From: a bacterium
GTDB lineage: Bacteria; Verrucomicrobiota; Lentisphaeria; Victivallales; GWF2-38-69
Assembly (NCBI GenBank): GCA_021781705.1
Contig: JAJXWI010000008.1
Location: 179 to 64,178 of the forward strand
DNA length: 64,000 nucleotides
Direction: 5' to 3'
The notes beneath the pieces are model-generated. The model ran no database searches. It was not told where the DNA came from and saw only the letters and a list, made by a program, of their open reading frames with translations. This document shows, in pieces, positions 30,713 through 32,599 of the stretch. Position numbers and translations under genes: made by a program. Position 1 is the first letter of the stretch. Every line of letters starts with the position of its first letter.

Positions 30713-30731
30713 CTATGTGGCATCACATTAG
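30713..30731. repeat. Left copy of imperfect direct repeat CTATRTGGCATSACATTAG flanking the 409-aa gene
   Basis: CTATGTGGCATCACATTAG (30713-30731) matches CTATATGGCATGACATTAG (32449-32467) at 17 of 19 positions. Both copies are followed by an A-rich TAAAAACA stretch. Confidence 0.5.
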
Positions 30732-30879
30732 AGGGCATCTAAAAACAGGTAATTTTATAATAATAGTTGCTTATCTGACAAGTTTGTTTTTAGCCTTCTT
30801 TCTTAATATTGGAGCAGATTGACTTTAACTCTTTTGCTGTATAATAACTCTTTGGGAGAAAATAACAAAAGGAGAAAAA

Positions 30880-32109
30880 ATGCATCCTTCCAGAGAGGGA
30901 AATACATTTACAAAGTTTAAAAATGTGGTTGAGACTGTAATCAGAGAAATAGATTCTCTCGACAACGAGTATGTTTTGAAAGCATCACCGACAGAACTCG
31001 AACAATACTTCACAGAGAAGGTTCTGATCAAACCTTTGGTGCTCCACGAGGATAAGCAGTACATAAAAGATCAAACCGGCACTCAGATAGATGTAAGCCA
31101 TGATTTCAACAGAGTTGTCTTCCCAGGCGAAAGAGCTATTATCAAAGGAACAAGGGTGGATATTGCAATTCCATTTGAAGGCGACCCTGGGCTTTGGAGT
31201 ATTCAAGCATCCACATCCAGTATGAGGAGTTATCCTGAAATAGAGATTCGGAACAACGAGGTGGTCTTTAGCGTTAGCTTTCCTGACGATTCCCCTGAAC
31301 CAGACAGACTTCGTTCCGATATCCAAAAACGAATAAAATCACTGGTAGACGCTGTTGCCTACCTGAAAAGAGATGTGGATAATCACAACAGCTCAGCACC
31401 CACAAGAATCAGGGAAGCTCTTTCCCGTAAAACATCACGAGCCCAATCGGCAGTTGAAGCAGTTGCAGCTTTAGGTATTCTTATAAAGAAGAAAGATACT
31501 GAGCCAACATTCGCAATCCCAGCTAAACGGCGGGAGAGTCCAGCTAAGCGCCCAGCGGTGACAACTGGCAAATATGAACCCGAGCCAATCCTTGCCGAAA
31601 AGGAATACCAGCACATACTGGAAGTGCTAAAAAGCATGTCTCTCGTCATTGAACGTAATCCCTCTTCATTCGCCTCTCTTGATGAAGAAGCTATTAGAGA
31701 CCACTTTCTTCTTCAACTGAACGGTCATTACGAGGGTAGTGCTACCGGAGAGACATTTAATGCTTCTGGCAAAACAGACATATTGATTAGAGTAGAGAAT
31801 AAGAACGTATTCATAGCGGAATGCAAATTCTGGCACGGATCTAAAACATTCGAAGATGCCATTGATCAACTCTTGGGTTACCTTTCGTGGCGTGATTCGA
31901 AGTGTGCGCTTCTCGTCTTCAACAAGACAAAGGATTCGAGCGCTGTCCGTCATAAAATGCATGAGGTCATGGAATCACGATCCCAGCATCGTAAGACAGT
32001 GTTCCATCGACCAGACGGAGACTCGCAATATGTCCTAATAAAAGATTCTGATCCGGGCCGAGAAATCTCTATAACAACTCAACTGTATGATATGCCGAGT
32101 AAGGAATGA
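30880..32109 (+). CDS. Hypothetical protein with C-terminal PD-(D/E)xK (RecB/Shedu-like) nuclease core
   Basis: 409 aa with a strong RBS (AAGGAG, 30869-30874). The C-terminal motif series is GKTD300-ILIRVENKNVFIA-E314-C-K316 followed by Q330-LLG-Y334 (D...ExK...QxxxY). The N-terminal 280 aa was not recognisable to me. Visibly higher G+C than neighbouring genes. Confidence 0.6.
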   Translation: MHPSREGNTFTKFKNVVETVIREIDSLDNEYVLKASPTELEQYFTEKVLIKPLVLHEDKQYIKDQTGTQIDVSHDFNRVVFPGERAIIKGTRVDIAIPFEGDPGLWSIQASTSSMRSYPEIEIRNNEVVFSVSFPDDSPEPDRLRSDIQKRIKSLVDAVAYLKRDVDNHNSSAPTRIREALSRKTSRAQSAVEAVAALGILIKKKDTEPTFAIPAKRRESPAKRPAVTTGKYEPEPILAEKEYQHILEVLKSMSLVIERNPSSFASLDEEAIRDHFLLQLNGHYEGSATGETFNASGKTDILIRVENKNVFIAECKFWHGSKTFEDAIDQLLGYLSWRDSKCALLVFNKTKDSSAVRHKMHEVMESRSQHRKTVFHRPDGDSQYVLIKDSDPGREISITTQLYDMPSKE

Positions 32110-32164
32110 GCACGCCCCCCATAACAAGAGGAACTAAATCGCTTTTTCTTTAGGATAAAAAGAA

Positions 32165-32305
32165 AAAGTAAATGAATTAACAAGCCGGCTCAAAAATGAT
32201 AATATTGAAATATTGGACGGGTCAAGAGAAACTGGAAATGGATGCTATGAAACAGCGTTCATTGCCCCGGAAGGAAATAGAATTGAAATAACATCTTATA
32301 AGTAA
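32165..32305 (+). pseudogene. Remnant of a glyoxalase/VOC-family gene (C-terminal ~47 codons only)
   Basis: The frame reads ...KVNELTSRLKNDNIEILDGSRETGNGCYETAFIAPEGNRIEITSYK*. This is the typical VOC C-terminal beta-strand motif (F.DPEGN.IEI). There is no start codon or N-terminal half, and an in-frame stop lies just upstream. Confidence 0.45.
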
Positions 32306-32448
32306 GCCGTTTTTCCAAACATGCAACTGGTTCTGAGTTAGTTTTTATATTGTAAAACAATCCGCAACTTGTCAATAAGCTTCCACTTAATGTGGCTCAG
32401 ACGTAAAACACAACCGAGACACGGCTGTGCTCCATTGCCAAGATCAAC

Positions 32449-32467
32449 CTATATGGCATGACATTAG
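32449..32467. repeat. Right copy of imperfect direct repeat CTATRTGGCATSACATTAG
   Basis: See the left copy at 30713-30731. This copy lies 133 nt upstream of the eno start; the left copy lies 149 nt upstream of the 409-aa gene start. Confidence 0.5.
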
Positions 32468-32599
32468 TATTAAAAAACAAAACCTCATTTTTATATTGAA
32501 TTATTGAATTTATTAGTTTTGAATTTAGTGTTAAGAGTTAGTTAGGTTTCGTATTTAACGAGTTAAATTTAGAAATACGTATCAAAAGGAGAAAAAGCT

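Follow-up and report, generated by a model that had tools for sequence, protein, structure and literature searches.

The 64,000-nucleotide (nt) stretch of DNA analysed here (hereafter the window) lies on contig JAJXWI010000008.1 of the Lentisphaeria assembly GCA_021781705.1. Between the housekeeping genes ugd and eno it contains a gene for a protein of 409 amino acids (aa). This gene is a PDC-S54-type candidate anti-phage gene, which was probably once an integron cassette and was left stranded, as a fragment of a cassette array, between ugd and eno. Short imperfect direct repeats bracket the gene and a truncated VOC gene behind it, and the same ribosome-binding site (RBS) block precedes both the 409-aa gene and eno. 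In an earlier reading of the letters alone (the sequence-only reading), the gene and the VOC remnant were taken as foreign DNA, and the comparisons below agree that this DNA is foreign and lineage-specific. The same reading proposed that the promoter and leader of eno had been duplicated upon insertion, which is contradicted by the separate ancestries of the two RBS blocks.

The 409-aa Protein and the PDC-S54 Family

The gene and the DNA that it shares with integron cassettes are located as follows.

30880-32109 (+): 409-aa gene, PADLOC PDC-S54 candidate defence protein by profile match
30866-30879 (+): CAAAAGGAGAAAAA, RBS block of the 409-aa gene, with which the cassette-derived DNA and the homology to loci L190, L191 and L093 begin
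30866-32110 (+): segment homologous in DNA to the integron cassettes of L190 and L191 (BLAST, 88% and 84%)

The match of the protein to the PDC-S54 hidden Markov model (HMM) is full-length (E 6.4e-134), with residues 6-407 aligned to positions 10-408 of a 410-position profile. Neither a Pfam or NCBIfam family nor a sequence match in the PDB was found for it. Its AlphaFold model is of moderate quality (predicted local distance difference test score 68), with residues 200-311 poorly modelled, and no PDB fold match was obtained (E 0.14 or higher). Four residues, D300, E314, C315, and K316, are invariant in 30 homologues and occur in a beta-beta-alpha setting (residues 300-316, window positions 31777-31827); D300, E314, and K316 suggest a PD-(D/E)xK-like nuclease core. 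The family is present in many phyla at 60-89% identity, and homologues occur as well on three viral contigs and, at 29-40% identity, on plasmids. PDC systems are candidates from "guilt by embedding", whose members are embedded in BREX, DISARM, or type I restriction-modification loci (Payne et al., bioRxiv 10.1101/2024.01.29.577857). A literature search returned no paper that names PDC-S54.

Homologues Are Mostly Integron Cassettes

The attC site of a cassette follows the open reading frame (ORF) and is comprised of an R'' box (RYYYAAC), an imperfect palindrome, and an R' box (GTTRRRY). Among 45 full-length homologue loci taken from metagenomes, a curated canonical attC (GGCTAAC ... GTTAG/GTTAT, 49-128 nt) directly follows the stop codon in 17, while an R'-type box occurs within about 60 nt 5' of the start in 22, and reads GTTAGCC in 13. 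Locus L191 (1-5715) is a cassette array with an attC after most cassettes, and its cargo includes DUF2703, HNH, N6/N4 methylase, and CfrBI-type restriction genes. PDC-S54 homologues are, for the most part, integron cassettes.

When positions 30332-32599 of the window were compared by BLAST with L190 (88% DNA identity) and L191 (84%), the alignment was confined to 30866-32110, that is, from the first base of the 14-mer CAAAAGGAGAAAAA to one base past the stop codon. The boundaries of the cassettes are also aligned, and the homology ends at the cassette limits. Since it starts exactly at the 14-mer, the 409-aa gene has its RBS block from the 5' untranslated region (UTR) of the cassette itself. 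In L190 and L093, (A/G)TTAGCC is followed directly by CAGAAGGAGAATAG/A-ATG where the window has the 14-mer, and the RBS block of the window differs from those of these relatives by two or three substitutions, all to A.

Some natural attC sites beside PDC-S54 cassettes have an ATT instead of a GTT core in the R' box (ATTAGCC, CATTATGC). Such boxes are seen in L190 (30-45 and 1330-1345) and in L105 (about 2125-2135).

Candidate Cassette Relics around the Gene

Several features on both sides of the gene resemble parts of cassettes, and a promoter-like site precedes it.

32120-32128 (+): CATAACAAG, probable degenerate R''-type box (attC inverse core), judged by position and similarity
32159-32305 (+): VOC/glyoxalase-type remnant (PF00903), 5'-truncated, the last 48 codons and the stop
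30548-30637 (no strand assigned): attC-like imperfect palindrome, CACTAAC...GTTAGCC at 30548-30623 and a longer TAAC...GTTA at 30551-30637 (85-87 nt)
30819-30845 (+): promoter-like TTGACT, 15 nt, TATAAT before the 409-aa gene, read from the letters and outside the cassette-derived DNA

The box CATAACAAG stands where homologues have GGCTAACAA (R''), 10-15 nt past the stop codon. The VOC remnant aligns with positions 79-121 of the 121 in PF00903 (E 0.0095), a match that falls short of the cut-off. Evidently one deletion took both the 3' part of the attC and the 5' part of the VOC gene from a two-cassette fragment. Right after the VOC stop, at 32314-32343, TCCAAACATGCAAC ... GAGTTAGTT resembles an attC reduced by deletion of its middle to the terminal boxes (R''/L'' and R'); the pair is too short for function.

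On the other side of the gene, the palindrome at 30551-30637 is the top AAC/GTT-closed hairpin of the 64 kb on both strands, with -16 kcal/mol, against a 0.1 percentile of -8 to -10 kcal/mol in the background and a mean of -11 for the arms of real attC sites. Its GTTAGCC (30617-30623) is one of just two on the plus strand of the window and pairs with CTAAC (30550-30554) in an unconstrained fold. The palindrome may accordingly be called a candidate attC relic. The promoter-like site at 30819-30845 was not listed by the promoter scan, which required a spacer of 16-18 nt.

Short Repeats between the Two Spacers

The spacer between ugd and the 409-aa gene and the spacer upstream of eno share four pairs of short matches in addition to the RBS block.

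30713-30731 (+): repeat copy A, CTATGTGGCATCACATTAG, in lineage-specific DNA, 148 nt 5' of the 409-aa ATG
32449-32467 (+): repeat copy B (motif B), CTATATGGCATGACATTAG, ending 3-5 nt before the conserved eno leader
30514-30530 (+): second repeat, copy A, TTAATGTGCCTTAGACG, 15/17 against its copy B, its start 9/10 complementary to the end of the 19-mer copy A
32387-32403 (+): second repeat, copy B, TTAATGTGGCTCAGACG, 15/17 against 30514-30530
30643-30660 (+): third repeat, copy A, TAAAAATCAAACCCTCAT, 16/18 against 32471-32488
32471-32488 (+): third repeat, copy B, TAAAAAACAAAACCTCAT, where the conserved eno leader begins; L087 and L179 have it as well
30536-30563 (+): fourth repeat, copy A, TCCGCAAATATTCACTAACGCTTTCCAC, overlapping the left arm of the palindrome
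32361-32386 (+): fourth repeat, copy B, TCCGCAACTTGTCAATAAGCTTCCAC, paired with 30536-30563

Copies A and B are identical at 17 of 19 positions, and at 20 of 23 with their flanks; these sequences and coordinates had been given correctly in the sequence-only reading. A repeat finder extended the pair to 26/35 (30697-30731 and 32433-32467). The copies are direct repeats 1736 bp apart, between which the promoter-like site, the 409-aa gene, and the VOC remnant are enclosed. As had also been noted, each lies 130-150 nt 5' of a start codon and is followed by TAAAAACA- and ATTTTATA-like stretches; both contain TGGCAT.ACATTAG. An inverted copy of the fourth-repeat copy B occurs at 30769-30784 (match 30769-30784 with 32366-32380). 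A 35-codon ORF at 30715-30822 (+) has its ATG inside copy A and would encode the hydrophobic peptide MWHHIRGHLKTGNFIIIVAYLTSLFLAFFLNIGAD; it has no Shine-Dalgarno sequence, and the triplet that matches its ATG in copy B is ATA.

As a degenerate 19-mer with up to three mismatches, the motif is found at just these two sites in 64 kb (expected 0.06). It is the best local alignment of the two spacers, with a score of 29, which 33 of 1000 dinucleotide shuffles reach for the full spacers and 10 of 1000 for the narrower regions chosen in the sequence-only reading; the significance of order 10^-2 estimated there for the 17/19 match was sound. The shuffled controls that it had called for gave a clearer result once matches were summed. 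The five best scores add up to 130, compared with 96.9 +/- 5.9 in shuffles (0/500), and the four best to 108, compared with a maximum of 96 among 209 unrelated natural Lentisphaerota spacer pairs; in that comparison a higher score came only from one truly homologous pair. With the RBS match excluded, the next four matches still sum to 101. The excess similarity of the two spacers is therefore real, since the sums exceed both shuffles and natural pairs. Three of the matches lie beyond the 19-mer and the RBS block, but the matches are not colinear. The interval between motif and RBS aligns no better than shuffled sequence, and a lenient end-to-end alignment of 30697-30879 with 32433-32596 is marginal (10/1000 shuffles reach its score). 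Colinear homology of 30536-30660 with 32361-32488 was also considered and rejected, the middle part being at shuffle level (z -0.1).

Within the left spacer, copy A is 9/10 complementary to a TTAATGTG box 200 nt upstream (30/5000 shuffles, p 0.006). Neither the 19-mer motif nor the TTAATGTG box has an exact match among viral contigs. A separate AT-rich, partly palindromic block of 30 nt, CAATTTTCGAATTTATAATTGATAAATTGT, is located at 30360-30389, just 5' of ugd, and recurs in two other spacers of the window (5870-5898 and 20354-20405 on the minus strand); its local score of 43 exceeds that of any match between the two studied spacers, and these spacers may have in it a common operator or promoter element.

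The eno Leader and Its Ancestry

The features of the eno leader are as follows.

32504-32531 (+): putative eno promoter, -35 TTGAAT (32504-32509), 16 nt, -10 TAGTGT (32526-32531), based on conservation, with the same layout in L087, L179, and L088
32583-32596 (+): eno RBS block, CAAAAGGAGAAAAA, ancestral to eno in the clade; L087 has TATCAAAAAGGAGAAAAAATCATG

The two copies of the 14-mer CAAAAGGAGAAAAA (30866-30879 and 32583-32596) are identical, and their extension to 30863-30879 and 32580-32596 gives a match of 16/17. It was described in the sequence-only reading as standing immediately upstream of both start codons, which is correct for the identity and for the 409-aa ATG at 30880, but at eno (ATG at 32600) the three bases GCT intervene. 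The 14-mer is of low complexity, and a third exact copy at 45940-45953 on the minus strand is located inside a coding sequence, where it reads K-G-E-K; therefore the 14-mer arises by chance in this genome. The full AAGGAG block precedes only about 3 of 45 genes in the window.

In three relatives, L087, L179, and L088, the eno leader can be aligned with that of the window between about 32470 and the ATG, at 72% identity in L087. Conserved features are the invariant ATTGAATTT, promoter boxes of the form TTGAAT-16/17-TAnnnT, and an RBS block of similar sequence. Motif B is found in none of the eno leaders of L087, L088, L179, and L091. Because it is absent from these leaders and ends at the homology boundary, motif B does not belong to the leader that eno inherited.

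Locus Context and Relatives

Within 6 kb of the gene on either side, tkt, leuS, ugd, eno, guaA, exbBD, and a gene for a TPR protein were recognized with Pfam, and no gene for an integrase or other recombinase was found. In relatives a tRNA-Arg(CCG) gene lies on the opposite strand about 180 nt 5' of eno (L087 5748-5824 and L088 5727-5803, both minus strand); the L179 contig ends in a partial tRNA (1-35) upstream of eno, and L091 has an rluA-like gene. A tRNA search of the whole window found none. In L087, a 2.2-kb stretch (3790-6000) with 34% G+C and without called long ORFs lies on the 3' side of tRNA-Arg; an island may have decayed there, at the same hotspot.

Relatives whose eno is 91-94% identical, or whose ugd is 89-93% identical, to the genes of the window have other neighbours, with no ugd near eno and with metH 5' of ugd. 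Since the neighbourhoods of ugd and eno differ in every relative examined, the locus is a synteny breakpoint. In a contig scan with eno, the relatives among the matches listed are at most 76% identical and share no common gene order. Exact-protein look-ups with the 409-aa protein and with ugd each returned eight near-identical contigs, all of which carry the insertion, and the sampled strains are at least 99.9% identical at the locus (Lentisphaerota metagenome-assembled genomes GCA_027457625.1 and GCA_027452705.1). Nothing points to present mobility, as judged by the lack of a recombinase within 6 kb and of polymorphism.

Origin of the Gene and of the Repeats

The cassette homology, its limits, and the ancestry of both RBS blocks are best accommodated by the following scheme. 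A fragment of a cassette array, lacking any integrase, would have been fixed between ugd and eno, at a point of rearrangement specific to this lineage. This fragment would comprise the gene, which brought along a short 5' UTR and RBS, the first attC box, and the 3' end of a neighbouring VOC cassette, the remainder of the attC and the 5' part of the VOC gene having presumably been removed by a deletion. The 409-aa gene would probably be read from the local sigma-70-like promoter at 30819-30845, outside the cassette-derived DNA, with a predicted transcription start near 30852, while the promoter, leader, and RBS of eno would be those that it had ancestrally, with a predicted start near 32538. 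The two copies of the 14-mer would be of separate origin, as two strong Shine-Dalgarno blocks in an A-rich context, and the 19-23-nt repeat and the second repeat (TTAATGTG...) would belong to the lineage-specific patch and not to the eno leader.

Several observations weigh against a stranded cassette fragment or against its repeats having a common origin. No intact attC adjoins the 409-aa gene, CATAACAAG is followed by no partner GTT hairpin, and the R'' relic amounts to just 7-8 bases. On the left, 242 nt separate GTTAGCC from the RBS, compared with about 3-30 nt in homologues. The palindrome may be something other than an attC because of a weak match to the Acido-Lenti-1 RNA (RF01687), a motif known from Acidobacteria and Lentisphaerae only; the match, at 30560-30592 (+), scores 22.2 bits, below the gathering threshold of 37, and is limited to the first hairpin, which is the inner hairpin CCACGGGCTCACGCCCGTGGCTAG of the palindrome. 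No family reached its gathering threshold in the Rfam scan. The left limit of the foreign patch is not mappable, because relatives have metH upstream of ugd, and no empty site was found in the collections searched, where relatives have no ugd-eno adjacency and all strains carry the insertion. With regard to the repeats, the 22-mer by itself is of marginal significance (p about 0.01-0.03), the five short matches lack colinearity, in an order that a single rearrangement would not give, and the region around copy B has no significant attC-like hairpin fold (z -1.9). The idea of terminal inverted repeats, as in a miniature inverted-repeat transposable element, was rejected, being supported in copy A alone and not significant in copy B.

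How the 19-23-nt repeat arose is judged more tentatively than the origin of the gene. It is quite possibly, though by no means certainly, a pair of decayed recombination-site or junction repeats left by the arrival of the fragment or by the rearrangement, and its source may be the 3' ends of attC sites whose core is ATT and not GTT, as in the nearest cassette homologue. This origin is favoured because of the complementarity between copy A and TTAATGTG and because the ATT-core boxes of the nearest relative resemble ...ACATTAG. Chance and composition, by which coincidental matches between AT-rich spacers would join convergent Shine-Dalgarno contexts, are a less likely but still serious source. 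The 22-mer is reached by 1-3% of shuffles and was found by scanning the whole 64-kb window, the 14-mer also occurs in a coding sequence while the RBS blocks are of separate ancestry, the matches are not colinear and their middle parts are unalignable, and the ugd-side spacer scores higher (43) against an unrelated spacer. Against coincidence stand the sum of the top matches, which exceeds 500 of 500 shuffles and all 209 unrelated natural pairs (101 versus 96 even without the RBS match), and the 9/10 complementarity of the 19-mer copy A and the second-repeat copy A (30/5000 shuffles). It is rather unlikely that the repeats are attL/attR-type junctions, duplicated as a 19-23-bp core when a small integrative element with the gene inserted beside the eno leader and later lost its integrase. 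Motif B lies exactly at the right-hand homology boundary, 3-5 nt from the conserved leader, so that the att-like junctions suggested in the sequence-only reading retain some standing on that side; the direct repeats 1736 bp apart enclose promoter, gene, and VOC remnant, eno adjoins tRNA-Arg, a classical island target, in relatives, and internal deletions are evident in the truncated attC and VOC gene. But there is no recombinase within 6 kb and no tRNA or tRNA fragment in the window, the motif is without similarity to the tRNA-Arg sequence (by inspection), and the first cassette-derived base is 135 nt further right than copy A, which therefore lies at no mapped junction. An integrative element would also not predict the other three matches, and no motif match was seen in viral contigs.

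The three remaining explanations are all very improbable. In one, a shared cis-regulatory site, bound by one regulator or forming a weak sigma-54-type -24/-12 element (TGGCAT-N5-TAG), would co-regulate the defence gene and eno, as the similar distance of both copies from a start codon (130-150 nt), the common TGGCAT.ACATTAG, and the confinement of the degenerate 19-mer to these two places in the window, even at three mismatches, might suggest. Yet the site is not conserved before eno in relatives and has no further copies in 64 kb, the internal palindromes differ (ATGTG-N4-CACAT in one copy, ATGGCA/TGACAT in the other), and so do the distances to the putative sigma-70 promoters (about -125 versus about -80); the sigma-54 interpretation itself was rejected by inspection, TGGCAT-N5-TAG having no GC at -12 and a spacing off by one. 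It is about equally improbable that the paired TTAATGTG...(T/C)ATRTGGCATSACATTAG units (30511-30733 and 32384-32469), together with the 85-nt palindrome, serve or until recently served as recombination sites of some undescribed type; if they did, an attC variant with an AAT/ATT core, for example, could bring cassette fragments into Lentisphaerota chromosomal spacers without a resident integron. The duplication of the eno promoter and leader upon insertion, with the incoming gene using the copy, is largely refuted. The lenient alignment (10/1000 shuffles) and the order of motif, TAAAAACA, ATTTTATA, and RBS, which is the same on both sides, speak for it, but the RBS block arrived with the cassette, the RBS of eno is ancestral (compare TATCAAAAAGGAGAAAAAATCATG in L087), and motif B lies outside the eno leader in four relatives. 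Moreover, the conserved eno promoter boxes have no counterpart 5' of the 409-aa gene, the interval from motif to RBS is at shuffle level, and the eno leader, which keeps 72% identity with its L087 counterpart in another species, shows no BLAST match to its supposed younger paralogue.

If the gene is such a stranded cassette, the locus is an ordinary case in which a rearrangement point outside an integron has retained a fragment of a cassette array. The same RBS blocks beside a foreign gene need not mean a copied host leader, each gene here having brought its own. The candidate PDC-S54 family, mostly cassette-borne and once found beside restriction-modification cassettes, is a reasonable target for testing.

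Comparison with Known Systems

The elements closest in kind are cassettes found apart from a complete integron, either at secondary sites or in a CALIN, a cluster of attC sites lacking an integron-integrase, which needs at least two attC sites by covariance model. The locus is similar in that the family is usually a cassette with canonical attC, that the window keeps the 5' UTR, the ORF, and an R''-like box, that a VOC gene, typical cassette cargo, comes next, and that an attC-like palindrome with GTTAGCC lies upstream with no integrase within 6 kb. It differs in that no intact attC is located beside the gene, that GTTAGCC lies 242 nt from the RBS with a promoter-like site in between, that the site is a housekeeping one (ugd / eno) at a synteny breakpoint, and that the attC sites of the window are only candidates, with one good hairpin and several weak relics. 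From a complete integron it is distinguished by the absence of an intI integrase domain within 6 kb (Pfam), and the intI/attI/Pc set was not recovered. With integrase islands that have attL/attR at tRNA genes, it shares imperfect direct repeats that bracket foreign DNA, one of them at the junction with ancestral DNA, and a tRNA-Arg at this position in relatives; it differs from them in having no integrase within 6 kb, no tRNA in the window, no tRNA-derived repeat, and an unmapped left junction.

As to PADLOC PDC-S54, the family is a single-gene phage defence candidate only, its defence activity is predicted, and no PDB fold match was found here, whereas the HMM match is full-length and high-scoring and one homologue resides in an array with restriction-modification cassettes. 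Phage defence carried on integron cassettes has been described in "Mobile integrons encode phage defense systems" (bioRxiv 10.1101/2024.07.02.601719). Although the cassette here lies outside an integron and PDC-S54 is a candidate family, the locus resembles those systems in carrying a candidate defence gene with cassette relatives, and a cassette-borne PDC-S54 fits recent reports of integrons storing anti-phage genes.

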